A stretch of 64,000 nt of DNA from Acidimicrobiia bacterium. GTDB taxonomy: Bacteria; Actinomycetota; Acidimicrobiia; Spongiisociales; ZC4RG35. The translations under genes and the position numbers were made by a program. Positions 1-52,743 of this stretch are shown piece after piece. Under the pieces are notes generated by a model. The model worked only from the letters and a program-made list of their open reading frames with translations, made no database searches and was not told the origin of the DNA. The first letter of the stretch is position 1. Each line of letters starts with the position of its first letter. The DNA is taken from the NCBI GenBank assembly GCA_028284765.1, contig JANQRA010000002.1, positions 101,061 to 165,060 of the forward strand. The letters run 5' to 3'.

Positions 1-205
1 GTGTCTCGTTCACAACCCTGGCCGACAGTTCTTCAGAGCCTTTGAATAGCAAATGCTCGAGGAAATGAGAGACCCCGGCTTCGTTGCCGTTCTCGTCGCG
101 GGTCCCGGTGTCCACCCAGCAACCGAGCGCCACCGAGCGAAGAGAAGGCATGGTCTCGGTGATGATCCGGAGGCCGTTGTCAAGTTGAGTCAAGTCGTAA
201 TGCAC
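1..205 (-). CDS. M16 (pitrilysin/insulinase) family zinc peptidase, N-terminal fragment; the gene continues past the left edge
   Basis: I translated the minus strand myself; this incomplete ORF is not in the ORF track. It reads VHYDLTQLDNGLRIITETMPSLRSVALGCWVDTGTRDENGNEAGVSHFLEHLLFKGSEELSARVVNET. The inverted zinc motif HxxEH (HFLEH) and the LDNGLRVI N-terminal signature of M16 peptidases are present. A GTG start lies near 205. Confidence 0.55.
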   Translation of the reverse strand, partial: MHYDLTQLDNGLRIITETMPSLRSVALGCWVDTGTRDENGNEAGVSHFLEHLLFKGSEELSARVVNET

Positions 206-276
206 GCCGCAAGCGTAAAGGCCACCTTGAGATGAACGAACTCGCGTTTGACAAGGCATGAGACAATGAACGGCTT

Positions 277-2364
277 GTGCGCGCACGTGAACAGACATTC
301 CTCACCGATCTGATAGGTCCGGAAGATCAGGCGATCGAGTCGGTCGTCGGTCGATATCAGAAGGTGGCTCCGGCAGTAACCCGACTCGCTCGGAGCCTTT
401 CTGACAACCCAAACCTGCGTGTCCGACTCGGGCCAGAGTCCTCGTCTTCGGAGAACGAAATCGTCGCAGACCCACGGATCTTCCAGGCTGCCTACACGCG
501 AAACGCACCGGTCACGCCCGACGAGGTTGCGCTTGCATCCGCACTGCACGAAGTCATGCATCTCGTGTCGACCAACCTCGATGAGACCAGGGAACTACCC
601 GAGGATTGGCCAATTGAAGGGGACCTCATGCCTGGGGTCGAGGTGGACCTTTTGACTGCTCTGGAGAAGACCGAGAAGCCGGTCGCCGAGGTCATGTTCT
701 TCTCCCTGGAGGACGCACGCCAAGAGGCCCAAGGGCTCTCGATTTACCCGGGTGCACGCTCCGTCCTTCAGGACCTCTATCTGTCTTCCCTGAGTCAGGC
801 GATCCAGCGCAGCGGCGCTTTGAGCCAGTTCGTTCTGGGGTGTTTCTTGCTGACTGCGGGCTATGTAGACCGGGACGTTCTCGAGCGCCGATTCGAGGCG
901 CGGGCGGCTGTCGCCCTCGACGACGCAACGGCACATTGCCAGATGGCGCGAGAATCAGATGATCCCTGGTACGTGGCCCAGCTTGCGATCGAGCTCGAAG
1001 CCATCGCCAGAGCCCACGGATTGATCAACGAGGCGCCTGAGACGGCCACCAACGCCCAACGCAAAGCACTTGAGAAGGTCGATGCGGAGAAGGCGGCCGA
1101 GGGAGTCGACACCGTCCGACTGACAACTCCGATCCTCTCCGATGCCGAGTCATATCAAGACACGAAACGAGCTTCCGACTCGCGGTCGGGTTCGTCGGAT
1201 CGCAAGGGAGCGTCGGACGTAGCCGACGAGGAGTCCACCAATCAGCTGCTCCGGGTCAGCCAGGCCCCGGAGGTCTTTCTGCCCACCGGTCAAGGCGGAA
1301 AGCTCGTCGTGACACCGATCCCTTCAGCATTTGCCGGGTTTGGCACAGAAGGTATGGAAGCGATCACCGAGGCAAGTCAGAAGTGGTCGGTTGATCAGCG
1401 GCACGTGTCGGGCGAGCTGTTTCCCCTATTTGCAGCGAACCAACGTCGCGGGCTTCGCAGCGGATTCGATCAGGGCGACGTGTCGCCGCACGCAGCTTTG
1501 TTCATCGGAGCAGGCTTGTATCAGCGTTTGTACGAGCGCCGAGCCTCCCGGTCTCGACGCCGGTACGCAGTCTCGCTGCTTGTTGACGGATCGGCGTCGA
1601 TGCTCAGTCCGGGCCGTTCGGCACAGGCGACAACACAGTGGGCGATGCCGGCGGCGATGCTTGGAGCGTGGACGATGGCCCGGCTTTGTGACGAGCTTCA
1701 AATCGATTTCGAGGTGGCACTGTTCAATCGTGGTTTTGCAGCCCGCGTGGACGACACCGAGCAGTCGTATGTCTCAGGACGCTCGGCCGCGACCGCAGGC
1801 CTGAAGAGGACTCAAGGGTCGGCTGCCGACCGGCTCACATCGACTGTGAACCACTACATGGTGAAGCCGTTCGATCGCCGGTGGCGAGACTCACAGCACA
1901 CGCTTGCTGGCCTGTTCTACACAGCCATGAATCCCCGTCGCGCAGCGACACTGGCTAGACGCGATTCTCGCTCCGCTCCTCCGGTTTCGCTCTTCGAGAA
2001 AGCGGCCAACGTCGACGAGTTCAACATCGTCCACGCCGGCGAGCGCATGGGCCGTCTCGGGGCGGACGTCCGGATCTTGATGGTTCTTGCCGACGGCATG
2101 ACCCGAGGATCCATCGACGCCCTGACCAAGTCCGTCGAGTCGGTTGAGGCGACCGGGACCACGGTCATCGGCATCGGGATTGGAGACCACACCGTGGACC
2201 AGGCGTATCGCCGCCATGAAGTCGTCGAGAAGCCACAACAACTAACCACCGCAATGGTCGACGGGGTACGAGGCGCTCTCCGTCGCAGCCTGGCCTTTTC
2301 CGGGATGGACACCTGGTGGCTACGCGCCTCAGAGTTTGCAAACAAGGAGATATCAGTTGCCTGA
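277..2364 (+). CDS. CobT-like / DUF2201-like VWA-domain protein (695 aa) with an N-terminal HExxH motif
   Basis: MIDAS motif DGSASM (LLVDGSASML) at about aa 430, and a second VWA signature LMVLADGMT. An HEVMH motif sits at about aa 92. The 3' end overlaps and is translationally coupled to the following AAA_5 ATPase gene. Confidence 0.6.
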   Translation: MRAREQTFLTDLIGPEDQAIESVVGRYQKVAPAVTRLARSLSDNPNLRVRLGPESSSSENEIVADPRIFQAAYTRNAPVTPDEVALASALHEVMHLVSTNLDETRELPEDWPIEGDLMPGVEVDLLTALEKTEKPVAEVMFFSLEDARQEAQGLSIYPGARSVLQDLYLSSLSQAIQRSGALSQFVLGCFLLTAGYVDRDVLERRFEARAAVALDDATAHCQMARESDDPWYVAQLAIELEAIARAHGLINEAPETATNAQRKALEKVDAEKAAEGVDTVRLTTPILSDAESYQDTKRASDSRSGSSDRKGASDVADEESTNQLLRVSQAPEVFLPTGQGGKLVVTPIPSAFAGFGTEGMEAITEASQKWSVDQRHVSGELFPLFAANQRRGLRSGFDQGDVSPHAALFIGAGLYQRLYERRASRSRRRYAVSLLVDGSASMLSPGRSAQATTQWAMPAAMLGAWTMARLCDELQIDFEVALFNRGFAARVDDTEQSYVSGRSAATAGLKRTQGSAADRLTSTVNHYMVKPFDRRWRDSQHTLAGLFYTAMNPRRAATLARRDSRSAPPVSLFEKAANVDEFNIVHAGERMGRLGADVRILMVLADGMTRGSIDALTKSVESVEATGTTVIGIGIGDHTVDQAYRRHEVVEKPQQLTTAMVDGVRGALRRSLAFSGMDTWWLRASEFANKEISVA

Positions 2365-3349
2365 AACAGTCACATTCATCGACCCCACCGGCGAGGGCGA
2401 ACCGATCGAGCTGGAAAAGTTCGAGCTCGACGGAACTCACGCCGACAGCGATCTGCGAGAGCGAAAGATCCCAACTCCGGACCCCCACTACGTGGATCTC
2501 GGAATGCTCTATCGGTTCGCACAGGTCGAACAAGCTCGACGAAGTGAGGCAGATGGCCTTGTCCCGCTACATGTGGCTGTCCGTGGCCACATGGGCACCG
2601 GCAAGGACCACGACATCGAGCAATTCGCAGCCCAGATGGGCCTCCCCTACTTCCGCATCCCCCTGACTGGTGAGGTTCGAGATGTAACCCTCATCGGTTC
2701 GACCCACCTCCATGGAGACGGCAAAGGTGGCACGGAGAGCCGCTGGGAAGACGGCGACATCACACGTGCTCTGCGGGGCCCGGCCCTCCTCAACCTCTCT
2801 GAGCTGAATGCCGCCGGCGCCGAGACTCTGTTCGCACTTCACGGACTGCTCGATCGGTATGGCGCACTCGATCTGCCGAATGGTGAGACGGTCAGCCTTC
2901 GACACGACGTCCGAGTCTTCGGAACGATGAACCCAACAGACATCCGGGACTACGCCGGGACCCAGACACTCAACAAGGCCTTCGCAGATCGCTGGGTGAT
3001 CTGGGAGAAGAGCTTCCCGGGAGAGGAACAAGTGCAAGCGATGCTCGAGCGTCGCTATCCGACCCTGAAGGAGGAGTACGTCCAAGCCATCGCGCGACTA
3101 ACAGTCGAGATCAATGCCTCGTTCGACGCCTCGGACACGGGGACGCGCGTGGAGACCCCCTTGTCACTCAGGTCGGTCCTAGACCGACTCCCAACAGGTC
3201 TGGTGATCTATGCCGATCGCGACGACCCGCTACGCAAAGCGTGGGAGGAGTTCGTCCTGCCCCAGGTCGATCGCTTTGATCGAGACCACTACGAGACAGT
3301 TTGGAACGCCGTCGTCCGCAAGGGCCCGGCTGAGCGTCCGTTCTCGTGA
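2357..3349 (+). CDS. CobS-like AAA_5 (MoxR/CobS class) ATPase with an atypical Walker A and B
   Basis: The alignment pattern is CobS-like: RGHMGTGKDHDIEQFAAQMGLPYFRIPL...DVTLIG...ALLNLSELNAAGAETLFALHGLL...VRVFGTMNP...GTQTLNKAFADRW. I chose the TTG at 2357 as the start: an AAGGAG RBS sits 7 nt upstream, inside the end of the preceding gene, and the sequence reads TTGCCTGA. The ORF track starts at 2336. Walker A reads GHMGTGKD (D where S/T is expected) and Walker B reads LLNLSE (S where D is expected). Confidence 0.6.
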   Translation: MPETVTFIDPTGEGEPIELEKFELDGTHADSDLRERKIPTPDPHYVDLGMLYRFAQVEQARRSEADGLVPLHVAVRGHMGTGKDHDIEQFAAQMGLPYFRIPLTGEVRDVTLIGSTHLHGDGKGGTESRWEDGDITRALRGPALLNLSELNAAGAETLFALHGLLDRYGALDLPNGETVSLRHDVRVFGTMNPTDIRDYAGTQTLNKAFADRWVIWEKSFPGEEQVQAMLERRYPTLKEEYVQAIARLTVEINASFDASDTGTRVETPLSLRSVLDRLPTGLVIYADRDDPLRKAWEEFVLPQVDRFDRDHYETVWNAVVRKGPAERPFS

Positions 3350-3370
3350 TCGGTACCCTCGTCTGACCTC

Positions 3371-4453
3371 ATGGCTTACGACTTAGGCAACGAAGAGCTC
3401 GACCAGAGGCTGCGGGACCTGGTCGCCGACGTCTCGGACAACGGCAACCAGGACATGATCGGTGAGCTGGTGACCACCGTCCTGAAACTCCATAGGGACG
3501 GCGCAACGCGTGGCGATCTCAAGATGATCAATACCGCGGTGAAGGAGATGCGCTACTCCAATCTGGTGTTCAGCCGGCATGACGAACCGAAGGTGACCAT
3601 CTATGGCTCAGCTCGCACCGATCCCGAAGAACCCAACTACAAGCTGACAGCTGAGTTCGCAGCGACGATGGCATCACACGGTTGGGGCGTGATCACAGGT
3701 GCCGGGCCGGGAGTAATGGAGGCCGGAAACAAGGGAGCCGGCATCGAGAGCTCCTACGGAGTGAACATTCGCCTCCCATTCGAAGCTTCTGCCAACGACT
3801 ATCTGGACCCAGACAAGACGGTCAATTTCAAGTACTTCTTCACCCGCAAGCTCGGCTTCGTGAAAGAGTCACACGCTTTTGTGATCATGCCGGGGGGATT
3901 CGGAACGCTCGACGAGTTATTCGAGCTGGTGACTCTCATCCAGACCGGGAAGTCTGACCTGCATCCAGTTGTGCTCCTGGAAGCTGACGGGACCAACTAT
4001 TGGCCGCCGTTGATCGACTACGTCAAGAACAACCTGCTCGGAAACGGAATGATCTCAGAATCAGACCTGGCGCTCTTCCTCCGCACTACCGACCCCAATG
4101 AAGCGTGCGAGCACATCTTCGAGTTCTATACGAACTACCACTCACAACGGTATGCGGGGGGTCGACTGGTGCTTCGAGTGCGGAAGGCCCCGACCGACAT
4201 AGAACTCGAGGTACTCAGCGAGGAATTCAGCGACATCATCGTCGAAGGAAAGATCGAGAGAACCGAAGCTTCGTCAGCCGAAGTCCAAGATGGAGACGCC
4301 CTTGATCTGGAACGGATCAGCTTCAGATTTGATCGCCGGCACTTTGGCCGGCTCCGTCAGTTGATCGACCGCCTCAACGACCTGGCAAGTCTCCCCGAGA
4401 CCACTGAGATACCCGCGCCCATGAGCGAGGAACAGGCGGAAAGACCCTGGTAG
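3371..4453 (+). CDS. LOG family protein (TIGR00730 Rossmann fold; nucleotide 5'-monophosphate nucleosidase / cytokinin riboside 5'-monophosphate phosphoribohydrolase-like), long form with N- and C-terminal extensions
   Basis: The hallmark motif PGGFGTLDELFE, plus GAGPGVMEAGNKGA. 360 aa. Confidence 0.75.
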   Translation: MAYDLGNEELDQRLRDLVADVSDNGNQDMIGELVTTVLKLHRDGATRGDLKMINTAVKEMRYSNLVFSRHDEPKVTIYGSARTDPEEPNYKLTAEFAATMASHGWGVITGAGPGVMEAGNKGAGIESSYGVNIRLPFEASANDYLDPDKTVNFKYFFTRKLGFVKESHAFVIMPGGFGTLDELFELVTLIQTGKSDLHPVVLLEADGTNYWPPLIDYVKNNLLGNGMISESDLALFLRTTDPNEACEHIFEFYTNYHSQRYAGGRLVLRVRKAPTDIELEVLSEEFSDIIVEGKIERTEASSAEVQDGDALDLERISFRFDRRHFGRLRQLIDRLNDLASLPETTEIPAPMSEEQAERPW

Positions 4454-4502
4454 CCCCTACTCGGCTTGGTCGTTTCGCCAGACTGGCTATTAGAATTGGC
4501 GG

Positions 4503-5234
4503 GTGCGTGACATCCTCTCTGACCTGGTAGCTGAGCAGCAATTTCTCGATCAGTCTTTGCAACGCATCCCGATCAAGGTTTGGGATCTGGTGACCCCAAA
4601 CAAGCCTTGGACGGTGCGTGACACGATCGCCCATCTCGCCGATTTCGAAGATCTCGGCGCCGATGCGATACAAAACGGAGACCGCATCAAGAAGTGGCAG
4701 GCTGCGACAGACCTCGACGCTCTCCGACAGGAGCCCATCAAGAAGGGCCGCAACATGCGCCCCCAGGACGTCATCGAGTGGTGGCGTGGAGGTCGGGCCA
4801 AGGTCGTTGAGCCCCTATCTCACATGAACGGCGAGGACCGTCTCCCGTGGATTGCAGGAGACATGAGCGCTCGCACGTTCGCGACCTTCCGTCTCAGCGA
4901 AACGTGGCTCCACGGACTCGACATCTACGAGACCCTTGGCATTGAGGTCGAAGACACACCGCGCATCAGGCACATTTCTTGGTTCGGATGGAAGACGCTG
5001 CCCTACGCCTTCAAACAGGCCGGCGAGCACTATGAGCCAGTGCGAGTAGAACTCATCGGACCGGGTTACTCGAAGTGGATATTCGGTCCGGAGGACACGG
5101 ATCAGCTGATCAAGGGATCGGCGTCCGATTGGGCGCGGCTCTCGGTTCGCCGCATCGAGTTCAAAGACACGAGGCTGAAAGTCACCGGCGAATACGCCGA
5201 AACAGCGGTCGAACTCGCACAGACCTTCCTGTGA
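4503..5234 (+). CDS. Mycothiol-dependent maleylpyruvate isomerase N-terminal domain / DinB-like family protein (TIGR03083-like)
   Basis: N-terminus ...WTVRDTIAHLADFEDLGADAI is typical of the DinB_2 / MDMPI_N family. GTG start. Confidence 0.55.
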   Translation: MRDILSDLVAEQQFLDQSLQRIPIKVWDLVTPNKPWTVRDTIAHLADFEDLGADAIQNGDRIKKWQAATDLDALRQEPIKKGRNMRPQDVIEWWRGGRAKVVEPLSHMNGEDRLPWIAGDMSARTFATFRLSETWLHGLDIYETLGIEVEDTPRIRHISWFGWKTLPYAFKQAGEHYEPVRVELIGPGYSKWIFGPEDTDQLIKGSASDWARLSVRRIEFKDTRLKVTGEYAETAVELAQTFL

Positions 5235-6019
5235 CCTCTCCCATTCCCGACCTGGTCGGGATGGTCCACCTGCTGCCCCTTCCTGGCTCGCCCTCGTATG
5301 GCGGGTCGATGGACCAGGTCCTGGAGACGGCTGTGTCAGACGCCCAGATCCTGACCGAAGCGGGAATGCCCGCTCTGATGGTCGAGAACTTCGGCGATGC
5401 CCCTTTCTTTGCCGATGACGTGCCCTCTGAGACTGTGGCCGCCCTCGCCCTGGCGGCTTCAACCGTTGCGGAGGCCGGCGTCCCGATCGGCGTCAACGTG
5501 CTCCGCAACGACGGTCTCGCCGCTCTGGGCATCGCATCATCGGTGAATGCCGGCTTCATAAGAGTGAACGTTCTCGCGGGACTGATGAACACGGACCAAG
5601 GACCGATCGTGGGTCGATCTGCCGAGATCGCTCGCAAGCGTGTTGCCCTCTGCCCTGACGTCGAGGTCTGGGCTGATGTCATGGTCAAACATGCCACACC
5701 ACCTGAAGGGCTGACCGCTCGGCAAGCTGCTCTCGACACGTTCGAACGTGGCGGAGCAGATGCGATCGTGGTTAGTGGAAGTGGCACCGGGTCTGAGCCG
5801 GACATGGAAGAGGCCAAGGAAGTGAGAGCAGCGGTACCCGAGGCGAGGATCGTCATCGGCAGCGGCGCCTCAGCATCCAATCTCCCTCAACTCATCGAGG
5901 TAGCCGACACCGTAATCGTTGGAAGCGACCTCAAGGTGGATGGGATCGCTACGAATCGTCCCGACCCTGAGCGAACATCGAGATTCATGTCGAAAGCAAT
6001 CGAAAGCGGGCTGATATGA
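5231..6019 (+). CDS. BtpA/SgcQ family protein (TIM-barrel membrane-complex biogenesis family)
   Basis: VHLLPLPGSP...ALMVENFGDAPF...GVNVLRND is a BtpA-family pattern. GTG start overlaps the upstream stop (GTGA). Confidence 0.55.
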   Translation: MTSPIPDLVGMVHLLPLPGSPSYGGSMDQVLETAVSDAQILTEAGMPALMVENFGDAPFFADDVPSETVAALALAASTVAEAGVPIGVNVLRNDGLAALGIASSVNAGFIRVNVLAGLMNTDQGPIVGRSAEIARKRVALCPDVEVWADVMVKHATPPEGLTARQAALDTFERGGADAIVVSGSGTGSEPDMEEAKEVRAAVPEARIVIGSGASASNLPQLIEVADTVIVGSDLKVDGIATNRPDPERTSRFMSKAIESGLI

Positions 6020-8904: not shown

Positions 8905-11900
8905 GTGGCACTAGACCGATTCTCTGACGCGACTCGCACCTGGTTCGAAGCGTCTTTCGCGGCGCCCACCGCAGCCCAGGAGCTGGGCTGGCCTGCCATC
9001 GCCGATGGCGACAACACCCTCGTCCACGCACCCACCGGCTCGGGCAAAACTCTCGCCGCTTTCCTGTGGACCCTCGACCGCCTCCTCACGGAACCAGTGC
9101 CTGAGAAGTCGGAGCGCTGCAGAGTCCTTTACATATCGCCGCTGAAAGCCCTCGCCCACGACGTCGACCGCAATCTGAGGGCCCCGCTTGCCGGAATCAG
9201 GCATGCCGCCGAGCGGATCGGCAAAGGCCCCCTCCCTGAGCTCACCACGTTCCTTAGGACCGGCGATACTCCTCAGGAGGACCGTCGACGGATGGAACGC
9301 AACCCTCCCGACATCCTCATCACCACCCCGGAGTCCCTCTATCTGATGCTCACGAGCGCCGTGAGAAGTGTCTTCAAGAGCGTGCGCTGGGTGATCATCG
9401 ACGAAGTCCACGCCGTCGCCAACACCAAACGCGGCGCTCACCTAGCCCTCTCCCTCGAGCGACTCGAGGAAATCGCAGAGGAGGCTCCTCAGCGCATCGG
9501 GTTGTCGGCAACTCAGCGGCCCCTGGAAACCATCGCCGAGTTCATGTCTGGCGGGACTCACCAGGATGACCATTGGCAGCCGAGACCCACGACCATCATC
9601 GACGTTCCCTCCGATAGGAACATGGACCTGGAGATCATTGTCCCAGTCGAGGACATGAACGAGCCCGCTGAGCCCGACCCTCTGGATCCCGACCGAACGG
9701 CCAATCGCTCCATATGGCCTGCGATCTATCCACGTTTGCTCGAGCAGATCAATCAGCACACCTCCACCATCGTCTTCGCCAACTCACGACGGCTGGCTGA
9801 GCGCATCTGCTCCGAGATCAACAACCTTGCCGAGGCCGAGATTGCCCGGGCCCACCACGGCTCGGTAGCACGAGAGCAACGTCTCGAGATCGAGGAGGCT
9901 CTGAAGCGGGGAGACCTCAAAGCAGTCGTGGCGACATCGTCGCTCGAACTCGGAATCGACATGGGTGCGGTCGATCTCGTCCTTCAAATCGAAGCCCCAA
10001 CGTCGGTTGCCTCGGGTCTGCAACGCGTCGGCCGGGCGGGTCACCACGTCGGGGGCACTTCCCGAGCCAAGGTCTTCCCGAAGTACCGGGGCGACCTTCT
10101 GGTGGCCGCTGTCGTGGCGGAGGAAATGGAAGAGCGAAACGTCGAGAAGACGAGGATTCCCAAGAACCCCATCGACGTGCTCTGCCAACAGATCGTCGCA
10201 CGGGTGGTTGCCGCCGACGTCAACGCCGACGATCTATTCGACCTGGTCAGACAGGCAGCGCCGTATGCAGAGCTGAGCCGCTCAGTCTTCGACGAGACAC
10301 TCGACATGCTGTCGGGCAGGTACCCGTCGGATCTCTTCTCCGAACTCAGACCTAGAATCAACTGGGATCGAGCTTCCGGAGAGATCTCCGCACGGCCAGG
10401 GTCCAGACAGCTTGCGGTGACCAATGCCGGCACCATTCCCGATCGTGGGCTCTACCGAGTCGCACTACCTGATGGCAGTCGGGTCGGAGAGCTCGACGAG
10501 GAGATGGTCTACGAATCGCGTGAAGGGGACGTGTTCCTCTTGGGCTCGAGCGCGTGGCGGATCACTCAGATCACACACGACAAGGTCGAAGTCGTACCTG
10601 CTCCTGGCGAAGCTGGGGCGAAGATGCCGTTCTGGCACGGAGACATGTTGGGGCGGTCGCTGGAGACCGGCCAAGCCGTTGGCAAGTTCATACGCGAGAC
10701 AGCAGCCCTCGACCCCGATGACGCTGCGATAAGGCTGTCTCAGACCCACCGTCTGGATGAGTTGGCGGCTCAGAATCTGGTGCAGTACCTCGACGAGGAG
10801 CGTCAGGCCACGGGCCTCCTTCCCACCGACAAGACCATCGTCATTGAACGTTTCAGGGATGAAATCGGAGACTGGCGAGTTGTCCTCCTCTCACCACTGG
10901 GAGCTCGTGTTCACGCACCCTGGGCAATGGCTCTAAGACACAGATTCAGGGAGCGTTTCGGAACCGATGTAGATGTGATCTGGGCTGACGACGGAATCGC
11001 CTTCCGATTCCCCGACTCTGACGAACCACCCGAGCCTGAAGACTTGATATTGGAGGCCGAGGAGGTGGAACAGCTGCTCGTCGATCACGTGGCAGACACC
11101 GCTCTCTTTGCCGCAAGGTTCCGCGAAGCGGCTGGTCGCGCCCTCCTGTTGCCCAGAAGGAGACCAGGTGAACGCACCCCGCTGTGGCTACAGCGGCGAC
11201 GGTCTGCCGATCTACTTGGAGTGGCCAAGCAATTCGGCTCCTTTCCAATTCTGCTGGAGGTCTACCGCGAGATCCTCCAGGACGACTTCGACCTTCCGGC
11301 TTTGCAGGAAGTCCTGTCCTCAATCAGCCGCCGCAATATTCGAGTGGCGTCGGTCGACTTGCCTTCCCCAAGCCCGTTCGCATCGTCCCTGCTCTTCTCG
11401 TTCGTCGCCGCCTATCTCTACGAGGCGGACGCACCCCTCGCCGAGAGACGGGCCACAGCACTCACTCTCGACCGCGAGCTCTTACGTGAGCTTCTCGGGG
11501 AAGGTGAGCTCAGAGAACTGATCGATCCCGAAGTCGTCGCCGCTGTCGAGCTCGAACTGCAACATCTGACGGAGAACCGACGCGCCAAGAACCCGGACCG
11601 AATCCACGACCTCTTGAGGGATCTGGGTCCTTTGACCATCGAAGACTTGGAAGTGAGGTCCGCTTCGCTCGATCTCTCAGAGGCGCTGAACCAGCTCGAG
11701 GTTCAGAAACAGGTGGTGAAAGTCACAGTTGGTGGCGAAACGCGATGGGCGGCCATCGAAGACGTAGCCAGACTCCGTGACGGTCTCGGTGTCCAGCCTC
11801 CTCAAGGAGTGCCACACACATTCCTCGAACCGGTGCCTGACCCGCTCGGAGATGTCGTGGCGCGCTACGCACGAACCCACGGGCCCTTCACAGCAGGGGA

Positions 11901-13275
11901 AGCCGCGTCGGCGTTGCGCCTGCCCATCGGTGTCGTTGAGACTGCCCTGAAAACGCTCGAAGGTCATGGACGGGTGGTGGAAGGGGCGTTTCGACCGGGT
12001 GGGGAAGGCCGTGAGTGGATCGATGATTCCGTGCTTCGCCGCCTCAAGCGAAAGTCTCTTGCTGTCTTGCGCTCGGAGATCGAGCCGGTCGAGGCCGAGA
12101 CGATGGCCAGTTTCGAAATCGGATGGCAAGGAGTCAGCCCCCAACCTCCCCATGGAGTCAACGCGTTGACGACAGCGGTGGCAAGACTCGCCGGAGCTGC
12201 GATCCCTGCGTCTGTTCTCGAACGTGACGTTCTCAGCGCCCGAGTCGCCGATGCTGGCACTGCGATTGACCAACTGATGCTCTCGGGAGAGCTCGTATGG
12301 GTCGGTCGTGGGGGAATCGGCCAGCGGGACGGCCGTGTGGCTCTCTACCCCCGAGAGAGCTTGAGCGCCCTCTGGACAGGACCTGATCCAGACTACGAGC
12401 CGAATGGAGTCTCGACGGAGATTCTCACCGCGCTCGAGGCACGGGGCGCCAGCTTCTTCGCAGATATCTACGAAGCGACCGGAGGTGGGGACCCCGATCT
12501 CACGGTTGATGCCCTCTGGGATCTGGTTTGGGCTGGCTACCTGACGAACGACACGTTCGAACCTGTGAGGGCATTCACCCGGCGTCGCAGGTCGAAGTCG
12601 TCTGGCAGACGTGCGCTTTCAAGCCGGTTTCCTGCGCATGCAGGTGGCAGGTGGTCGCTCACCTCTTCTCTCATCCACACCCAGAGCCCCGTCACCGAAC
12701 GGCACGCGGCTTGGGCGCAACTGCTTTTGGACCGTCACGGTGTGGTCACCAGGTCAACCGTCCTCGCTGAGGGATACCTGGGAGGATTTGCGGCCTTGTA
12801 CCCGGTGTTCAGCCATCTGGAGGAAAGCGGACGGTTGAGGCGCGGTTACTTCGTCGAGGGTCTCGGAGGGTCCCAATTCGCACTTCCGGGAGCGGTCGAC
12901 CGTCTCCGCTCACCATCGGAGCCGGGGCTGATGGTGCTTGCCGCCACCGATCCGGCGAACCCCTATGGAGGGATTCTTCCCTGGCCCGAAAGCGACGAAG
13001 TCAGACTCGCCCGAGACGCCGGTGCTTACGTCCTGATCTACGAAGGCGGATTGATTGGCTACCTGGATAGGGGGCACAAGGGCCTGACGCTGCTCGACCG
13101 TTCTCCGGAGCGTCTCAGTGATATATCGAGAGCTCTTGCAGAAGTGGCTGCTCGATATCGCCGTTTGACGCTCCTCACTGTGAATGGTGAGCCGGCGACA
13201 TCGTCGCCGTTGGCCAGTCCTCTCTCCGAATGGGGCTTTACCACAGCCCCGAGGGGCCTCACCTACAGAGGCTGA
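8905..13275 (+). CDS. lhr: ATP-dependent helicase Lhr (large helicase-related protein), DEAD/DEAH superfamily 2
   Basis: 1456 aa. Walker A APTGSGKTLAAF, a DEVH box (VIIDEVHAV), and the long Lhr-type C-terminal extension. Confidence 0.85.
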   Translation: MALDRFSDATRTWFEASFAAPTAAQELGWPAIADGDNTLVHAPTGSGKTLAAFLWTLDRLLTEPVPEKSERCRVLYISPLKALAHDVDRNLRAPLAGIRHAAERIGKGPLPELTTFLRTGDTPQEDRRRMERNPPDILITTPESLYLMLTSAVRSVFKSVRWVIIDEVHAVANTKRGAHLALSLERLEEIAEEAPQRIGLSATQRPLETIAEFMSGGTHQDDHWQPRPTTIIDVPSDRNMDLEIIVPVEDMNEPAEPDPLDPDRTANRSIWPAIYPRLLEQINQHTSTIVFANSRRLAERICSEINNLAEAEIARAHHGSVAREQRLEIEEALKRGDLKAVVATSSLELGIDMGAVDLVLQIEAPTSVASGLQRVGRAGHHVGGTSRAKVFPKYRGDLLVAAVVAEEMEERNVEKTRIPKNPIDVLCQQIVARVVAADVNADDLFDLVRQAAPYAELSRSVFDETLDMLSGRYPSDLFSELRPRINWDRASGEISARPGSRQLAVTNAGTIPDRGLYRVALPDGSRVGELDEEMVYESREGDVFLLGSSAWRITQITHDKVEVVPAPGEAGAKMPFWHGDMLGRSLETGQAVGKFIRETAALDPDDAAIRLSQTHRLDELAAQNLVQYLDEERQATGLLPTDKTIVIERFRDEIGDWRVVLLSPLGARVHAPWAMALRHRFRERFGTDVDVIWADDGIAFRFPDSDEPPEPEDLILEAEEVEQLLVDHVADTALFAARFREAAGRALLLPRRRPGERTPLWLQRRRSADLLGVAKQFGSFPILLEVYREILQDDFDLPALQEVLSSISRRNIRVASVDLPSPSPFASSLLFSFVAAYLYEADAPLAERRATALTLDRELLRELLGEGELRELIDPEVVAAVELELQHLTENRRAKNPDRIHDLLRDLGPLTIEDLEVRSASLDLSEALNQLEVQKQVVKVTVGGETRWAAIEDVARLRDGLGVQPPQGVPHTFLEPVPDPLGDVVARYARTHGPFTAGEAASALRLPIGVVETALKTLEGHGRVVEGAFRPGGEGREWIDDSVLRRLKRKSLAVLRSEIEPVEAETMASFEIGWQGVSPQPPHGVNALTTAVARLAGAAIPASVLERDVLSARVADAGTAIDQLMLSGELVWVGRGGIGQRDGRVALYPRESLSALWTGPDPDYEPNGVSTEILTALEARGASFFADIYEATGGGDPDLTVDALWDLVWAGYLTNDTFEPVRAFTRRRRSKSSGRRALSSRFPAHAGGRWSLTSSLIHTQSPVTERHAAWAQLLLDRHGVVTRSTVLAEGYLGGFAALYPVFSHLEESGRLRRGYFVEGLGGSQFALPGAVDRLRSPSEPGLMVLAATDPANPYGGILPWPESDEVRLARDAGAYVLIYEGGLIGYLDRGHKGLTLLDRSPERLSDISRALAEVAARYRRLTLLTVNGEPATSSPLASPLSEWGFTTAPRGLTYRG

Positions 13276-14195
13276 GCGGCTTCCAGCTCTTTGACTCCTA
13301 GAGCTTCGCGTCCGCGGTTCGCCGCTCGTGTCATCACGACAATCGTTGCCGACAACAGGATGATGCCAGCCCATTCAGAGCCCGAAAGAACTCGATCGAA
13401 CGCAACCCACCCGATGAGTATCGAGGTCAACGGGAAGGCCAATTCGGCAAGTGTGGCGCTTGAAGCCGGAGTGGTCTTCAGACCGCGGTAGTAGAGCATG
13501 AGCGCGGCAAGGCCAGGAACCAGTGAGAGCAGGATCAGGGCGCCGAAGTCGCTGAAAGTCAGGTTCATGGCGTCACCCGCCTCGCCACGCACTACAAGGA
13601 TGATGAAGGCTGTCGGCAGACCCACAGCAAAACGCACGGACGTCAACTCGTTCGGTGGGACCTTCTTGGTCAGGTGCTTGCCCAGCACAGTTCCCATGGC
13701 CCATAGAGCCGCTGCACCGAATGCGTAGAGGGCTGGGGCAACCTGGCTAACGCCCACGTCGAATGGATCGGGGAAGGCAATAAGCCATCCACCGGTGACA
13801 GCCGCGAGGAAATACCACCCGTATCGGGGCAGCAGCCTTTCCCCCAAGAGCAAATACGCACCGAGAACTGCGACTACGGGCTGAATCTTCTGTATGAGAA
13901 GTGGGGTGGTGGGATCTCCATAGGTAAAGGCCTGGGTGAACAAGATCGTGGCCACCGCGGAGGCACCTGCGCCAACGAACAGAATTGCAGCCATGTCTTT
14001 GCCGGTGAGTTGGGGCCGATTTCGCCAGAAGCGAATGAGCAAGGGCAGTGTGACTGCCACCAGGATCACGTGTTCCCAGAACACCACCTTGGTTGCTGGC
14101 ATTTCAAATGCCAGGGCCCGTCTGAACAATCCGTCGGTGCCCCAAAGCGCCGCACCCGCGGCGACGAGCAAGAACCCGGATCCAAGTCTCTTCAT
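13263..14195 (-). CDS. EamA/DMT superfamily transporter
   Basis: 310 aa, about 10 TM, with the duplicated EamA-type hydrophobic organisation. Confidence 0.65.
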   Translation of the reverse strand: MKRLGSGFLLVAAGAALWGTDGLFRRALAFEMPATKVVFWEHVILVAVTLPLLIRFWRNRPQLTGKDMAAILFVGAGASAVATILFTQAFTYGDPTTPLLIQKIQPVVAVLGAYLLLGERLLPRYGWYFLAAVTGGWLIAFPDPFDVGVSQVAPALYAFGAAALWAMGTVLGKHLTKKVPPNELTSVRFAVGLPTAFIILVVRGEAGDAMNLTFSDFGALILLSLVPGLAALMLYYRGLKTTPASSATLAELAFPLTSILIGWVAFDRVLSGSEWAGIILLSATIVVMTRAANRGREALGVKELEAAQPL

Positions 14196-14204
14196 CTCAG
14201 CCTT

Positions 14205-14981
14205 TCACGAGATTCCGGACGAACCGGCCCCGGTCACGCCACCATCGATTGGGATGGTTGTGCCCGTCATCCAGTCCGACGCGTCTGAACCCAAGTAAAC
14301 AATCAAACGAGCAACATCTTCCGGCTCGCCCACTCGACCTAACGGATGCATTGCGGCGGTGGCGTCCTCATCGACAAGCAAGGCACCAGCCAACCTCGTT
14401 TTAACAACGGCTGGGGCGACGGCGTTCACGCGGACCGACGGTGCCAACTCGAGCGCAAGTTGACGGGTCATGTGGATCAGCCCGGCTTTCGAGATGTTGT
14501 AAGCGCCCATAATCGGGCTCGGCTTGAGGCCGGCGATGGACGCAACGTTGACTATCGACCCGCCCTTGTCCCCCATCCACTGCCGATACGCCGCCCGTAC
14601 CCAAAGCAGAGGGGCACGAAGATTGACCGCCCAAGTCTTGTCCAGTGCTCCAAGATCGACGTCAACGAGGTTTCCGGGTGCGGGATTGGTTCCGGCGTTA
14701 TTCACGAGGATGTCGCATGCCCCGAAGAACTCGATGGTGTCGGCGACCGCCCCGTCGGCTGCATCCTCGTCATCGGCACGCGCTGCCAACGCAAGTACTC
14801 GACTCGGCTCGACTCCGGCCGAAACGAGTTCAGCCTTTGCCGCTTCGATGTTCTCGGCCTTGCGTGAGGTGATTGCCACTCCGGCCGCGCCAGATCTGGC
14901 GAATTCGAGAGCTGTCGCGAGCCCGATGCCACGACTGCCACCTGTGACCAACGCCACCTTGCCTTCGACCGAAACATCCAT
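14205..14981 (-). CDS. SDR family oxidoreductase
   Basis: GKVALVTGGSRGIGLA (TGxxxGxG) and YNISKAGL (YxxxK). Confidence 0.85.
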   Translation of the reverse strand: MDVSVEGKVALVTGGSRGIGLATALEFARSGAAGVAITSRKAENIEAAKAELVSAGVEPSRVLALAARADDEDAADGAVADTIEFFGACDILVNNAGTNPAPGNLVDVDLGALDKTWAVNLRAPLLWVRAAYRQWMGDKGGSIVNVASIAGLKPSPIMGAYNISKAGLIHMTRQLALELAPSVRVNAVAPAVVKTRLAGALLVDEDATAAMHPLGRVGEPEDVARLIVYLGSDASDWMTGTTIPIDGGVTGAGSSGIS

Positions 14982-14983
14982 TC

Positions 14984-15481
14984 TCAGTGACCTCCACGCT
15001 TCACGCCGCCGTATTTCATCCTGGTATCAGACATGGCTGCCGCTCGAGACTCGTCATCGTTGATCCCGGCATCAACGATCTCACCGATGAACAGCGTGTG
15101 GGTGCCCAGGTCGATTGCCTGCCGCACTTCGCAGTCCATCCAGGCTATGCACTCATCGAATACAGGTGCACCCGTCGTCTTCAGCGACACCGGTCGTCCG
15201 TTGAGTGTCAAGCCATCGCGCACCGCTGGTTTGGAGAACTTGACGAAAGGCCTTGTGTCTTCGGATGACCAGAGATTCACCGTAAATGAGCCTCCGTCGG
15301 TGATGAGGCGATGGGTCACCGCCTTGTTGTCCACACCAATCCCTATCAGGACCGGCTCCATCGAGAGTTGGGTGATCCAACTCGTGGTCATCCCGTTCCA
15401 CTCTTCGCCATGCGCCGACCCGACCAGGGCCAGCGCATTTGGGATCTTCCAGGTGACTTTGTTGATCAGTTCAGAGTCCAC
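14984..15481 (-). CDS. Flavin reductase-like (FMN-binding split-barrel) domain protein
   Basis: ...ALVGSAHGEEWNGMTTSWITQLSMEPVLIGIGV... is a flavin reductase family pattern. Only 3 bp separate it from the SDR gene. Confidence 0.7.
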   Translation of the reverse strand: MDSELINKVTWKIPNALALVGSAHGEEWNGMTTSWITQLSMEPVLIGIGVDNKAVTHRLITDGGSFTVNLWSSEDTRPFVKFSKPAVRDGLTLNGRPVSLKTTGAPVFDECIAWMDCEVRQAIDLGTHTLFIGEIVDAGINDDESRAAAMSDTRMKYGGVKRGGH

Positions 15482-35808: not shown

Positions 35809-38287
35809 GACCTACTGAGTCGGCGACAGCCTTCTCACCGTATTCCGCAACCACGGTGACTCTGTCGACACCATCTGGGATGTCGTCACGCGAGATTTCG
35901 AGAGAGAACCCAGAACGGAGTAGATCTTCGCTGTCAAACCAACCAACGACGTTGCGGTTGTCTCGGTTGGGCTCAGTTGAGGCGATCAGCTGGTCTCCAA
36001 CAAAGACATAGAAGACGTCGGGCGGAACCTTGTTTCTCGTGTCAGCCCCCCACCCGATCATTTGATAGCCGTCGACAGTGGCCGTCACCTCGTCGACCTG
36101 GACCCTCAGACTTCCCTCGGTCACGACATCGATCTCACGTCCGTCCGGTGCTCTGAGCACGAGGTCGAGCTCCGTCGGAAGTCCCATTGTCAACGACTGG
36201 TCGGCATCAAGGCTGTACAGAGTGACCTGATTGGAACCGTCGAACACCCAGCTCTCACCCACGAGACCGATGAAGGACCCACCTTCGGTCGAGTCCCGAT
36301 TCAGCAGCGCCACGCCAGCGATCACGTCGTTAACTCCGATCAGCAGTGTGTCACCTACGTCTCCAGCCACGCGTCCGGTGAGCAGTGTCTGGACCTCACC
36401 TGACGACACCTCCACATCATTCAACGATGTACCCAGGTCGAGTGAATATGTGAATCCAGCTTCGCTGCTTGCTCCGATATCAGAGATCCTCATGCCAACA
36501 AACTGTGCGCCATCGCCCACTGCGGTCACCGACTCCCAAGACGACTGATCAGGCACCCGGGCATGGTTGGCTTCGACCTGGGCCAAGAGCGCGGCGATGT
36601 TGGTGTTCACGCCCGTTCCGTTGCAGCACCAGCGAATGGGCTCATGAGGTCTTTCCCGATCGAGGTCCAGCAAGGACGTTCCGTTGAACGACCAGTCGGT
36701 ATCTATATCCATGACGTCGACAATCGTTGGCATCAGGTCGACGCCGAATACCGGCAGGTCCACCGTCTCACCTACCGACTGATCCGGATACTTGATGAAC
36801 AGCGGCACGCGATACAAGTCGTCTCGATTGTCCTCGTATGGCCACCGCCGATGCTCGCCAGGCGTGAAAGATGCGCCGTGGTCGGCCACAACCACGATCA
36901 TTGTCTCGTCCCATGTGCTCGAGTCCTCGATGTGGTCGAGGAGCCTCAGCAGCATCGTGTCGAGAAAGCCGACCTGGTACAGATGTCGTTGAAAGCCGAG
37001 TAGTGCGGGGCCCGGATCGAGCGACCATCGACCGTCACCTTCCACCCCAAACACCTCCGTGTACTCCTCAGGTCGCTCGTAGTGAGTGCCTGAGGGGTTT
37101 GCCTCCCACGGCACATGCGGCGTCCGAAGGTGTGCGTAGCTGAGCGTTGGCTCCGTGCCTGCCTTGATTCCGTTGATCAGTCGCTGCACCCAGGTCACCC
37201 AATCCGGGCGCTGCCCCTCCGGTGGCACCGGAAGGCCTTCAATCTCCACGTCACTTCCCTCGACCTGGTTCGTCTGACCAAGAAAACCCTTCCATGCGTT
37301 CCCGATGCTCGGAAGCTGCTCCCTCGTGTCACCGGGCAGCGTCAGGTGTCCATACACCACCCCGACGTCGGCCAGAAGATTCCCAAATAGGGCAGGTGCG
37401 CGACCGGCGTAGTCAGGACAGATCTCTTCGGGGCAGAGCTCGGCGACCCATTCGATGACATGCATCTCGTGGCTGTCCTGGAGAAGAGTGAACAGGTTGT
37501 TCGGGTGGTCCAGGTAGGTCGGCTTCTTGTCTTCGTTGGACTTCGTCCCCGTCAGGATCGCGGGAACGCTCTGTGTAGTGGCGATCGAATCGGACAACGC
37601 ATTCCGATACCACGTGCCCAGTTCCGCAAGCCGGGCAAACCCGGGAAAGAGATCGTCATTGATACTGCCATCGGCCCGCATGATTGAGGCAACGGGCATC
37701 TCGTCGAGCTGAATCATCACCAAGTGGCTCGGCGCTTCTATCGCGACGGCTTCTCCGTCCTGTTCCGGCTCTTCCCAGATGAGACCTGCCGTGGGAGACG
37801 TTGCGAGGAACATCGCAATCAGCACAGGTACGGCTACAGCCGCCAACGCAAAGACGCTGTCGATGACGGTCGAAAGCCAGTAGAGCAGACCAGCGACAGC
37901 GAGCGCCATCCCAATCGCAAGCAACGTCTCGTCCGGCACGATCTGTCTCGCCACAACGAACCCGGTCGCTAGTGAAAGCACACCGATGAGAACCCGATAG
38001 GTGATCTTGAATGCCGTCGGCCCGACAAGCCTTGCAATCGCCAACGCGAGCAATGCCAGCGCCGGGATGAAGAGGCCGACGACGAAGGCGAAGAGGAACA
38101 GTTCGCTACCGGTCGTCCGATTGGCAACGAAGACCTCGGGGTTCCGGCCATAGATATCGAGAATCGGAGCAACAAAAGCAACCGCTGCCAGTCCTGTTAT
38201 GACCGCCAGCGGTTTCCAGATCGAAGTGGAGTCTTTGCTCGCCACGTGCCTGGAGAACGGTACAGGCACACCTTCCCAAACAGACAT
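35783..38287 (-). CDS. Sulfatase-like hydrolase/transferase (LtaS / alkaline phosphatase superfamily) membrane protein, 834 aa
   Basis: An N-terminal multi-TM region followed by a periplasmic catalytic domain with VVVADHGASF, ...TQSVPAILTG, and a long C-terminal beta-rich extension. Confidence 0.65.
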   Translation of the reverse strand: MSVWEGVPVPFSRHVASKDSTSIWKPLAVITGLAAVAFVAPILDIYGRNPEVFVANRTTGSELFLFAFVVGLFIPALALLALAIARLVGPTAFKITYRVLIGVLSLATGFVVARQIVPDETLLAIGMALAVAGLLYWLSTVIDSVFALAAVAVPVLIAMFLATSPTAGLIWEEPEQDGEAVAIEAPSHLVMIQLDEMPVASIMRADGSINDDLFPGFARLAELGTWYRNALSDSIATTQSVPAILTGTKSNEDKKPTYLDHPNNLFTLLQDSHEMHVIEWVAELCPEEICPDYAGRAPALFGNLLADVGVVYGHLTLPGDTREQLPSIGNAWKGFLGQTNQVEGSDVEIEGLPVPPEGQRPDWVTWVQRLINGIKAGTEPTLSYAHLRTPHVPWEANPSGTHYERPEEYTEVFGVEGDGRWSLDPGPALLGFQRHLYQVGFLDTMLLRLLDHIEDSSTWDETMIVVVADHGASFTPGEHRRWPYEDNRDDLYRVPLFIKYPDQSVGETVDLPVFGVDLMPTIVDVMDIDTDWSFNGTSLLDLDRERPHEPIRWCCNGTGVNTNIAALLAQVEANHARVPDQSSWESVTAVGDGAQFVGMRISDIGASSEAGFTYSLDLGTSLNDVEVSSGEVQTLLTGRVAGDVGDTLLIGVNDVIAGVALLNRDSTEGGSFIGLVGESWVFDGSNQVTLYSLDADQSLTMGLPTELDLVLRAPDGREIDVVTEGSLRVQVDEVTATVDGYQMIGWGADTRNKVPPDVFYVFVGDQLIASTEPNRDNRNVVGWFDSEDLLRSGFSLEISRDDIPDGVDRVTVVAEYGEKAVADSVGLSSRTAEG

Positions 38288-38374
38288 ACTCCCGACCCGT
38301 GCTTAACTCTCTCTAAGGCCGTCGGGAACCATCAACAGCCAGCTCAGCGTCTTACATCTCAGGGAGATGTCTCA

Positions 38375-39989: not shown

Positions 39990-40991
39990 GTGAACATGGA
40001 CCTGGACAGATATCAGCAGACAGCTCTATCGATCGAAGCAGCTGTTGGAGCCCGCATTGCCGGCCAACCTGAGCTCATTCGGCAAACCCTCGTAGGTCTT
40101 CTCGCTGAAGGTCACGTCCTACTGGAGGGCGTGCCTGGACTCGGCAAGACCGAACTGGTCAAGGCGTTCTCCGAGGCCATCGGTGTTGATTTTGCCAGGG
40201 TGCAATTCACTCCCGATCTGATGCCCGCAGATATCGTCGGGACCCAGGTTCTCTCGGAAGATGAGGCGGGCAGGCGAAAGTTTGAATACCAACCGGGACC
40301 GGTGTTCACCAATCTGCTGCTAGCAGACGAGATAAATCGAGCGACACCCAAGACTCAGGCCGCGCTGCTCGAAGCCATGCAGGAACGACAGGTGACTGTC
40401 GCTGGCAGGACTCGCGATCTCCCAAGACCCTTTCTCGTGTTGGCCACCCAGAATCCAATAGAACTGGAGGGGACCTACCCACTTCCGGAAGCACAGCTGG
40501 ACCGGTTCATGTTCAAAGTGACGGTCAGTCCCCCGACCTCCGAAGTCATGGAGGAGATCCTGCGGAGAACAACTGGTGGATTCGTTCCTGAGGTGCCTCT
40601 GGCCACAGATGTCGAGACAATTTCATCAATGATCGCGACCACTCCCGGACACCCAGTGGCGGGCCACCTTCTCACATATGTCTCACGAATCGTGGAGGCC
40701 TCTCAACCGGATGGGAACACTGCCACTCCTCCCGTGAAGCGCTATGTCAGGTGGGGCTCCTCCCCTCGTGGGGCACAAGCGATCGTGTTGGCGGCCAAGG
40801 CAGCTTCTCTCATCGAGGGCAGATCTCACGTGTCTGCCGAAGACATCCGCTGGGCGGCACCTGCAGCTCTGCGCCATCGGCTGGTTCTTGGCTATGAAGC
40901 GGCCGCCGAGGGAGTCAAGCCCGACGTGATCGTCGAGGAGATCTTGAACAGCACTCCCGAACCGAAACCCGACATTCGAGGAACTCCATGA
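39990..40991 (+). CDS. MoxR-family AAA+ ATPase
   Basis: GHVLLEGVPGLGKTELVKAFSEA (Walker A); LLADEINRATPKTQAALLEAMQE (Walker B / sensor); VLATQNP. Confidence 0.9.
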   Translation: MNMDLDRYQQTALSIEAAVGARIAGQPELIRQTLVGLLAEGHVLLEGVPGLGKTELVKAFSEAIGVDFARVQFTPDLMPADIVGTQVLSEDEAGRRKFEYQPGPVFTNLLLADEINRATPKTQAALLEAMQERQVTVAGRTRDLPRPFLVLATQNPIELEGTYPLPEAQLDRFMFKVTVSPPTSEVMEEILRRTTGGFVPEVPLATDVETISSMIATTPGHPVAGHLLTYVSRIVEASQPDGNTATPPVKRYVRWGSSPRGAQAIVLAAKAASLIEGRSHVSAEDIRWAAPAALRHRLVLGYEAAAEGVKPDVIVEEILNSTPEPKPDIRGTP

Positions 40992-52580: not shown

Positions 52581-52743
52581 CTCAATAAGGGCCGCCGCCG
52601 CCCCAATCCCCCATCTGCGACGGGTCTTTGTACTCACGCTCGTAGTACTCGTCAGCCTCGGCAGCCTTACGACGCAACCACCACGCCAAACCACCCGTTA
52701 TACCGATGGCAAGCACTGCCGAAAACCAGTTCCAGAATGGCAT
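52581..52743 (-). CDS. Small membrane protein (53 aa), translationally coupled downstream of icmF. Not in the ORF track.
   Basis: I translated it myself: [53 protein letters not shown]. Its ATG overlaps the icmF stop (ATGA). Confidence 0.35.

Follow-up and report, generated by a model that had tools for sequence, protein, structure and literature searches.

The window analysed here, 64,000 nucleotides of contig JANQRA010000002.1 from an Acidimicrobiia bacterium (GenBank assembly GCA_028284765.1, forward-strand positions 101,061 to 165,060), carries near its left edge two overlapping genes, one for a protein with a von Willebrand factor A (VWA) domain, called the adaptor below, and one for an AAA+ ATPase. 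The pair is, we think quite probably, a chromosomal, vertically inherited, non-cobalamin AAA+ motor and VWA adaptor of the CobS/CobT type, closest to pairs known from phages, with an ATPase that is active on a rearranged Mg2+ site. New are the site itself, an invariant Walker A Asp and Walker B Ser (plus an Asn) for which we found no described counterpart, and the cellular, core-genome, Acidimicrobiia-specific lineage of a phage-type module; the fusion of HExxH and VWA domains, the gene order and the general AAA+/VWA logic are already known. That logic, as described for MoxR-VWA systems, has the VWA adaptor capture a client protein via its MIDAS, an adhesion site dependent on metal ions, and the AAA+ ring remodel the client, often with insertion of a metal cofactor (PMC7159879).

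The two genes and their junction are placed as follows:

277..2364, + strand: adaptor gene (CobT-like, 695 amino acids), GTG start, from the open reading frame call
2357..3349, + strand: ATPase gene (CobS-like AAA_5, MoxR clade, 330 amino acids), TTG start, from the open reading frame call
2344..2364, + strand: coupling junction, with AAGGAG at 2344-2349, a 7-nt spacer, TTG at 2357 and the adaptor stop TGA at 2362-2364

The initial annotation had described two open reading frames in a VWA-then-ATPase arrangement, translationally coupled, with an AAGGAG inside the end of the VWA gene 7 nt before a TTG start, and the coordinates agree with it throughout. Adaptor stop and ATPase start overlap by 8 nt (TTGCCTGA). 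Both start codons, GTG and TTG, are supported because a public protein collection holds entries of identical length and sequence for the adaptor (P0121) and for the ATPase (P0001). The proposed coupling is borne out at the orthologous loci of the soil clade, to which the window belongs: the 8-nt overlap and AGGAG are kept in all 79, and the rare TTG starts the ATPase in 75 of these species. In the second, marine clade (see below), the adaptor stop and the ATPase ATG are adjacent or overlapping. Translation of the motor seems to require that ribosomes terminate on the adaptor gene, a dependence that is unexpected if the stoichiometry is six motor to two adaptor subunits, as in CobST.

The ATPase matches the Pfam family AAA_5 (E = 3.7e-12, 46.9 bits against a cut-off of 22). 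The NCBIfam equivalog model of CobS (TIGR01650) gives 52 bits against a cut-off of 558.55, and covers residues 37-223 only. A phmmer search of the PDB sequences retrieved midasin, CobS (9UJV, E = 1.7e-12), NorQ and CbbQ, and among the PHROGs phrog_249 was matched with E = 1.5e-25. The nucleotide site is made of the following elements:

2585..2608, + strand: Walker A, GHMGTGKD (G77-D84), with D84 in place of the Mg2+-ligating Ser/Thr and H85 and D86 next to it
2786..2803, + strand: Walker B, LLNLSE (L144-E149), with S148 for Asp, N146 for a hydrophobic residue, and the catalytic E149 kept
2930..3172, + strand: sensor-1 N192 (2930-2932), Arg finger R212 (2990-2992) and sensor-2 R272 (3170-3172), from the alignment with CobS and phage ATPases

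In P-loop NTPases, Mg2+ is bound directly by the Ser/Thr of Walker A and through water by the Asp of Walker B, which also hydrogen-bonds the Ser/Thr; the two are among the most conserved residues of these proteins. This Mg2+-organising pair is not found in the window ATPase, where D84 and S148 stand instead, and the other elements expected of AAA_5, namely the Walker A Lys, Walker B Glu, sensor 1, Arg finger and sensor 2, are all present. The phmmer alignment to the solved CobS (9UJV) sets GHMGTGKD over GYHGTGKS and LLNLSE over LVFDE. The same register was obtained in a MAFFT alignment with five outgroups (CobS, two phage ATPases, and the nearest non-family relatives P0297 and P0355), in which K83, E149, N192, R212 and R272 are kept, D84 replaces Ser/Thr, and S148 replaces Asp. 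The kept residues are the counterparts of the CobS Walker A Lys, E142, N186, R210 and R271; CobS has its Walker A at G71-S78, Walker B at D141-E142, sensor 1 at N186, Arg finger at R210 and sensor 2 at R271 (preprint 10.64898/2026.07.21.739949). The two alignments thus agree that the substitutions pointed out in the initial annotation lie at the true Walker positions, and the thought that the real motifs might lie elsewhere in the protein can be laid aside.

These states are fixed in the family. GKD and SE were found in 75 of 75 soil-clade and 78 of 78 marine-clade ATPase genes, the marine proteins having GHMGTGKDHD and NLSELNAA without exception (78/78 each), and K83, D84, H85, D86, N146, S148, E149, N192, R212 and R272 do not vary in either clade. 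GKD is limited to the family of the pair among the 523 Walker A motifs of the 150 best representative matches. Literature searches brought up nothing on a 'GKD' Walker A or on MoxR proteins whose Walker motifs are non-canonical. Another non-canonical state of the same site is seen in P0260, a protein of 2600 amino acids in the representative library, in which AAA_5 occurs as a fourfold repeat; every copy has GERGTGKN as its Walker A, with Asn at the Ser/Thr position.

The adaptor consists of an N-terminal HExxH domain, a charged linker, a shaft-like segment and a C-terminal VWA domain with MIDAS:

277..1026, + strand: N-domain of the adaptor, about residues 1-250; phage CobT-like proteins have a homologous N-domain
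547..561, + strand: HEVMH (residues 91-95; H91, E92, H95), candidate zinc-binding/catalytic motif, read from the sequence
706..726, + strand: LEDARQE helix motif with E150 at 724-726, candidate third zinc ligand ('Glu helix') by its presumed role
1027..1266, + strand: charged, low-confidence linker (about residues 251-330), with an AlphaFold2 (AF2) confidence (pLDDT) below 35 over residues 282-349
1423..1560, + strand: strongly conserved pre-VWA segment, PLFAANQRRGLRSGFDQGDVSPH...YERR, candidate counterpart of the CobT 'shaft'
1564..2286, + strand: CobT_C-type VWA domain, its MIDAS complete, with DGSAS (D437, S439, S441) at 1585-1599, other candidates being N578/D580 and D606

The initial annotation called the ATPase CobS-like and the VWA protein CobT-like. 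The alignment with CobS upholds the former, and profile-profile comparison the latter, the CobT likeness of the adaptor being invisible to Pfam, NCBIfam and PADLOC. In particular, hmmscan gave no Pfam match to the adaptor at E <=0.1, so that neither CobT (PF06213) nor CobT_C (PF11775) is reached, and none in NCBIfam or PADLOC; searches of PDB sequences by phmmer and by profile hmmsearch gave nothing specific. The marine orthologue scores 20.9 bits with CobT_C, just under the cut-off of 21. In the phage collection, all 22 of 22 weak tblastn matches of the adaptor fall on genes annotated as CobT-like, and among the PHROGs it matches phrog_1576 (E = 3e-10), phrog_17276, 'CobT' (E = 7e-8), and, at its N-terminus, phrog_5298 (E = 4e-7). 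When the family profile of the adaptor was compared by hhalign, its VWA half matched authentic CobT from a Sphingomonas plasmid (probability 93%, E = 2.5e-7), and its C-terminal half matched CobT of Vibrio phage ICP2 (96%, E = 1e-9) and, most strongly, a viral HExxH-VWA profile (99.8%, E = 6e-30), with the DxSxS columns in register. This viral profile (A4) is an alignment of ten HExxH-VWA proteins from IMG/VR loci, of which ten match the Pfam CobT_C model and seven the CobT N-domain model. The profile comparisons thus identify the adaptor as a divergent member of the CobT superfamily.

An IMG/VR scan with the ATPase returned 13 viral loci, nearly all with an AAA_5 ATPase beside a protein of 600-750 amino acids with HExxH towards its N-terminus and DxSxS towards its C-terminus. 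Either gene may come first, and the VWA-then-ATPase order, which the initial annotation had singled out as the reverse of the canonical one, is ordinary for the superfamily. The defining traits of the phage-type module, an HExxH N-domain and a MIDAS VWA domain homologous over both halves and an adjacent AAA_5 ATPase, are all seen in the window pair.

The HEVMH motif had been reported about 90 residues from the N-terminus of the adaptor, and occupies residues 91-95; that it lies in a conserved domain rather than in a linker is evident from its conservation between clades whose adaptors are about 29% identical, and from its alignment to the invariant HExxH of phage CobT-like proteins. HExxH is present in 73 of 73 soil-clade and in 62 of 65 marine-clade adaptors (there as HE[AS]IH), and for E150 conservation is 95% or more in each clade. 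Of the helices predicted by AF2, that at 81-98 holds the motif and that at 135-153 holds E150. The N-domain aligns with the viral HExxH-VWA profile in hhalign (probability 95%, E = 1-3e-8), with HExxH and EDxRxE in register, and the N-domain alone aligns with gp90 of Gordonia phage Beaver (90%, E = 1.5e-6), with HEVMH over HEIGH. The E150 motif is aligned with EDxRIE of the viral proteins and, locally, with VETARIE of true CobT, the latter alignment not being significant alone. Compared directly in hhalign with one sequence of authentic CobT or of ICP2, the N-domain gave no significant match (E = 0.15). The Pfam scan of the adaptor gave no M48 or DUF2201_N match, the structure-based comparison no match to a peptidase or CobT_N, and a homologue search with the Gordonia phage N-domain as query no matches; the Gordonia phage homologue has a weak match to Pfam M48 (E = 0.036).

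We infer a zincin/M48C-like fold for this domain. A zincin-like motif was held in the initial annotation to be unexpected in CobT, an expectation that does not survive: the N-domain of CobT is reported to be similar to the M48C peptidase fold (preprint 10.64898/2026.07.21.739949), and pairs of metallopeptidase-vWA and MoxR proteins have been described in jumbo phages (Iyer et al. 2021; PMC7824862). HExxH is aligned between the viral and window proteins and is absent from authentic CobT; we conclude that it is the ancestral state of the CobT superfamily, and that authentic CobT is the degenerate form that lost it. With HExxH and the downstream Glu (E150) kept, zinc binding by the adaptor N-domain is probable and peptidase activity possible; we lean slightly against the idea that it cleaves something.

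The remainder of the adaptor follows the plan of CobT, in which an N-domain and a disordered linker of about 90 residues precede a 'shaft', which reaches into the ring of CobS, and a VWA domain with MIDAS (preprint 10.64898/2026.07.21.739949). Its AF2 secondary structure and disorder pattern match this layout, with the charged linker as the counterpart of the disordered one in CobT. The pre-VWA segment, whose SGFDQGDxSPH is at least 95% identical in the soil and marine clades, has the same position relative to MIDAS as the CobT shaft (Q373-R413) has relative to D422, and by this analogy may be the shaft that enters the ATPase ring. DxSxS is present in 73 of 73 soil-clade and 62 of 65 marine-clade adaptors (there as DGSGS), and the MIDAS residues D437, S439, S441, N578/D580 and D606 are conserved in both clades and aligned with the MIDAS region of CobT. 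A Foldseek search with the full-length adaptor model placed NorD and the MIDAS domain of MDN1 at the top, a match to generic VWA only, from a poor model (AF2 pLDDT 52).

An exhaustive search of representatives returned essentially one full-length cluster of the ATPase family at 50% identity, beyond which come midasins and phage-type ATPases at 37-40% identity with canonical GKT/GKS. The adaptor was found in 127 species-representative genomes; in the best 80 of these it is 71-86% identical to the window protein, and the genomes are almost all metagenome-assembled genomes of Acidimicrobiia/Actinomycetota, a minority being deposited under other names. The pair is single-copy and at the same locus in every genome examined. 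The second clade came from a metagenome scan seeded with a 56%-identical fragment, which gave 279 relatives; it is marine and of low G+C content (about 33%), and its NCBI records are of Acidimicrobiia/Actinomycetota. Marine ATPases are 54-60% identical to the window ATPase, and marine adaptors 28-30% identical to the window adaptor. One exact marine ATPase sequence occurs on 342 contigs; the marine clade is very abundant. No family member with GKD was found in IMG/VR. For P0297, the nearest outgroup, and for P0241 and P0250, the contigs are too short for the gene context to be read.

Across both clades, identity reaches at least 95% at 149 of the 330 positions of the ATPase and at 108 positions of the adaptor, among the latter H91, E92, H95, E150, SGFDQGDxSPH and the MIDAS residues. 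Synonymous sites are saturated within the soil clade (proportion of synonymous differences, pS, about 0.67-0.70), and the nonsynonymous distance dN comes to 0.13 (ATPase) and 0.18 (adaptor), so that dN/dS is at most 0.07 and 0.09, respectively; of six genes in the neighbourhood, the ATPase gene is under the strongest constraint. Public labels of the family ('hypothetical protein', 'MoxR family ATPase', 'cobaltochelatase CobS') are uninformative or misleading, and several database entries (P0246, P0247, P0252) are frameshifted or chimeric gene calls that inflate its apparent diversity; in P0252, the C-terminus of the adaptor is fused to the N-terminus of the ATPase via an out-of-frame stretch.

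The best profile matches of the window pair are the phage CobT-like/CobS-like pairs, whose ATPases also go under 'porphyrin biosynthesis' (Gordonia phage Beaver gp90/gp92, Vibrio phage ICP2 gp40/gp41, and phrog_5298, 17276, 1576 and 249). Common to both are the two-gene module, HExxH at about residue 70-120, the EDxRxE helix, the acidic linker and the C-terminal MIDAS VWA domain. The window pair differs in being cellular, part of the core genome and vertically inherited, with ATPase identity of at most 40%; all phage ATPases examined have canonical GK[ST] and [DE]E, whereas the window ATPase has GKD and SE, and many of them have N-terminal Zn-ribbon-like extensions that the window ATPase lacks. 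With CobS/CobT of the CobNST complex (9UJV, 9UKx) the pair shares an AAA_5 motor that has helix-2 and pre-sensor-1 inserts and extra C-terminal helices, and an adaptor made of N-domain, disordered linker, shaft and CobT_C-type VWA domain with MIDAS. In contrast to CobNST, the gene order is reversed, no CobN/cob context is seen, HExxH is kept, the curated CobS/CobT models are not reached, and relative to CobS the Walker A Ser has become Asp and the Walker B Asp has become Ser. NorQ/NorD, CbbQ/CbbO, CoxD/CoxE, RavA/ViaA and BchI/BchD share the general logic (NorQ and CbbQ as sequence matches, NorD as a fold match), but NorQ/NorD-type adaptors have no HExxH N-domain and their ATPases have canonical Walker motifs, unlike the window pair.

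By analogy with CobST, NorQD and MoxR-vWA systems, the 330-residue ATPase would form a hexameric ring, with the adaptor N-domain docked on the ATPase lid and the pre-VWA shaft (the SGFDQGDxSPH region) inserted in the ring pore. The MIDAS-bearing VWA domain would then be presented to the client protein, and ATP turnover would remodel the client, for metal or cofactor insertion or for cleavage.

In the nucleotide site, the substitutions keep one carboxylate and one hydroxyl across the two Mg2+ positions, and we hold it more likely that the ATPase still hydrolyses ATP at a compensated site, with the carboxylate shifted from Walker B to Walker A, than that the site is dead. Sigma-54 activators, which are active AAA+ enzymes, have GESGTGKE as Walker A and LFLDE as Walker B (PMC8871633), so an acidic residue directly after the Walker A lysine is compatible with hydrolysis; they are of another clade and function, and they have Glu rather than Asp and keep the Walker B Asp. 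Several points weigh against an active motor of the CobS/CobT type. We found no proven ATPase in the literature that combines a Walker A Asp with a Walker B Ser, and impaired or very slow ATP hydrolysis is possible. Ring formation, shaft insertion and client capture are carried over from CobST by analogy, and the adaptor N-domain is linked to authentic CobT only transitively, via the viral profile. The initial annotation had suggested that the ATPase may be non-hydrolytic or use an unusual mechanism. In its stronger form, this makes the ATPase a nucleotide-binding, essentially non-hydrolysing switch (a pseudo-ATPase), acting as a static or ATP-gated scaffold. The loss of both Mg2+-organising residues speaks for such a switch, as do the replacement of the hydrophobic core residue of the Walker B strand by N146 and the silence of the literature on a GKD plus SE enzyme. 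We nonetheless find it unlikely, given that E149, N192, R212 and R272, which pseudo-ATPases usually lose, are invariant across deeply diverged clades together with K83, that a carboxylate and a hydroxyl are retained, that GKE occurs in the sigma-54 activators, and that the ATPase is the most constrained gene of the block; the non-hydrolytic half of the suggestion is weakened by the same evidence.

That the pair is a genuine cobaltochelatase CobS/CobT of Acidimicrobiia, with CobN encoded elsewhere, is suggested by the homology to CobS and CobT, by the IMG label 'cobaltochelatase CobS' of the marine ATPase, and by the B12-dependent IcmF-like mutase encoded in the window (see below). We rate this as very improbable: the CobS model is far from its cut-off (52 bits against 558), Pfam CobT and CobT_C do not match the adaptor, HExxH is kept where authentic CobT lacks it, and the closest relatives are phage modules and not CobST. 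No cob genes were seen among the scanned open reading frames of the 64-kb window or the scanned genes of the marine locus, and CobN is not among the four window open reading frames of at least 1000 codons (Lhr, DnaE, BatA-VWA and the IcmF-like mutase), so that the lack of a cobalamin (cobN) context noted in the initial annotation stands, and no synteny with cob genes contradicts it. A 1456-residue open reading frame at 8905-13275 (+ strand), considered as a CobN candidate, is an Lhr helicase (DEAD, Helicase_C, DEAD_assoc and four Lhr winged-helix domains). With the curated models not reached and without CobN context, the pair should not be called a cobaltochelatase. Slimmer still are the chances of a phage-derived or defence/conflict module, such as a prophage remnant or an NTP-dependent MoxR-vWA conflict system (the initial annotation had named conflict systems, beside chaperone systems, for comparison): the nearest homologues of both proteins are phage-encoded, and MoxR-vWA conflict systems exist (PMC7159879), but neither protein has a PADLOC match at E <=1, all genomes examined, from two deeply diverged clades, have the pair once and at the same housekeeping locus, purifying selection is strong and G+C content uniform, and no phage, defence or effector genes were seen near the pair among the window open reading frames scanned.

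A more speculative and on balance doubtful extension of the active motor is that D84/H85/D86 with N146/S148 form a nucleotide site of altered metal chemistry, coupled to an active zincin in the adaptor. Such chemistry might be, for example, ligation of the metal by the carboxylate itself, a site that favours a transition metal or nucleotide without Mg, or a very slow 'timer' hydrolysis, and the pair would be a split, VWA-targeted, ATP-gated metalloprotease or metallochaperone with an Acidimicrobiia-specific housekeeping role, possibly maturing the downstream DinB/MDMPI-like or BtpA proteins. The Asp/Ser exchange under strong purifying selection, with the other catalytic residues kept, is a natural experiment on the rebuilding of an AAA+ Mg2+ site, and with the pair a module known elsewhere from phages is represented in cells, apparently in a housekeeping role. 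Given the abundance of the marine clade, the client of the pair may be of physiological importance in uncultured Acidimicrobiia of sea and soil.

The pair is flanked by the following genes:

1..259, - strand: N-terminal part of an M16 (HxxEH) zinc peptidase, a divergent neighbour cut by the window edge; Pfam Peptidase_M16 and M16_C on the full gene (L001)
3371..4453, + strand: LOG/TIGR00730 (SLOG) protein, long form, 360 amino acids, 21 nt downstream; Pfam Lysine_decarbox, NCBIfam TIGR00730; a neighbour in the soil clade only
4503..6019, + strand: MDMPI_N/DinB_2 protein (4503-5234) and BtpA-family protein (5231-6019), by Pfam families

The soil-clade order is M16 (- strand), adaptor, ATPase, LOG, MDMPI/DinB, BtpA, (ECH), HD; the marine order is ftsK-dapA-dapB (- strand), adaptor, ATPase, a 745-nt gap, MDMPI/DinB, BtpA, SbtA. 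G+C content is uniform across the region, and the locus is a housekeeping block. The M16 peptidase, with its HFLEH motif, lies directly upstream and divergent in 66 of 72 soil-clade loci and is absent there in the marine clade, from whose locus LOG is likewise absent. The two flanking genes reported initially, M16 on one side and LOG on the other, are thus present in the window and not conserved in the marine clade, and they were rejected as obligate partners. The only neighbours common to both clades are MDMPI/DinB and BtpA, found in 64 and 59 of 81 soil-clade loci and in 71 and 63 of 80 marine loci, respectively; to regard their products as clients is speculative.

Some further details of the locus were noted. 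The called M16 start (ATG 259, - strand) is 17 nt from the GTG of the adaptor (window 199-276). The first 19 or so residues of the call are not conserved, orthologues beginning near 'HYDLT', and a GTG lying about 57 nt inside the call is probably the true start; the two divergent genes may both lack a leader. In L003, L004, L005, L009, L015 and L075, one or two alpha/beta-hydrolase genes, haloalkane-dehalogenase-like and proline-iminopeptidase-like by their motifs, break the adjacency of ATPase and LOG (at about 13000-15000, or 3200-5200). The marine gap (L104 8988-9732, about 745 nt) has no open reading frame above 75 amino acids and is unusually long for streamlined low-GC genomes; a small protein or an RNA might be encoded in it.

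Elsewhere in the window, positions 52743-56063 (- strand) encode a 1105-residue, IcmF-like fusion of B12-binding, MeaB G-protein and methylmalonyl-CoA-mutase domains, which indicates that the organism uses cobalamin. A 575-residue open reading frame without a Pfam match (38246-39973) lies just upstream of a canonical MoxR (AAA_3 and AAA_lid_2)-DUF58-BatA/VWA operon at 39990-46194 (+ strand), in which the BatA/VWA protein has 1450 residues and a GATase1_like domain. This operon represents a second, conventional MoxR-VWA system in the same genome, with normal motif families.

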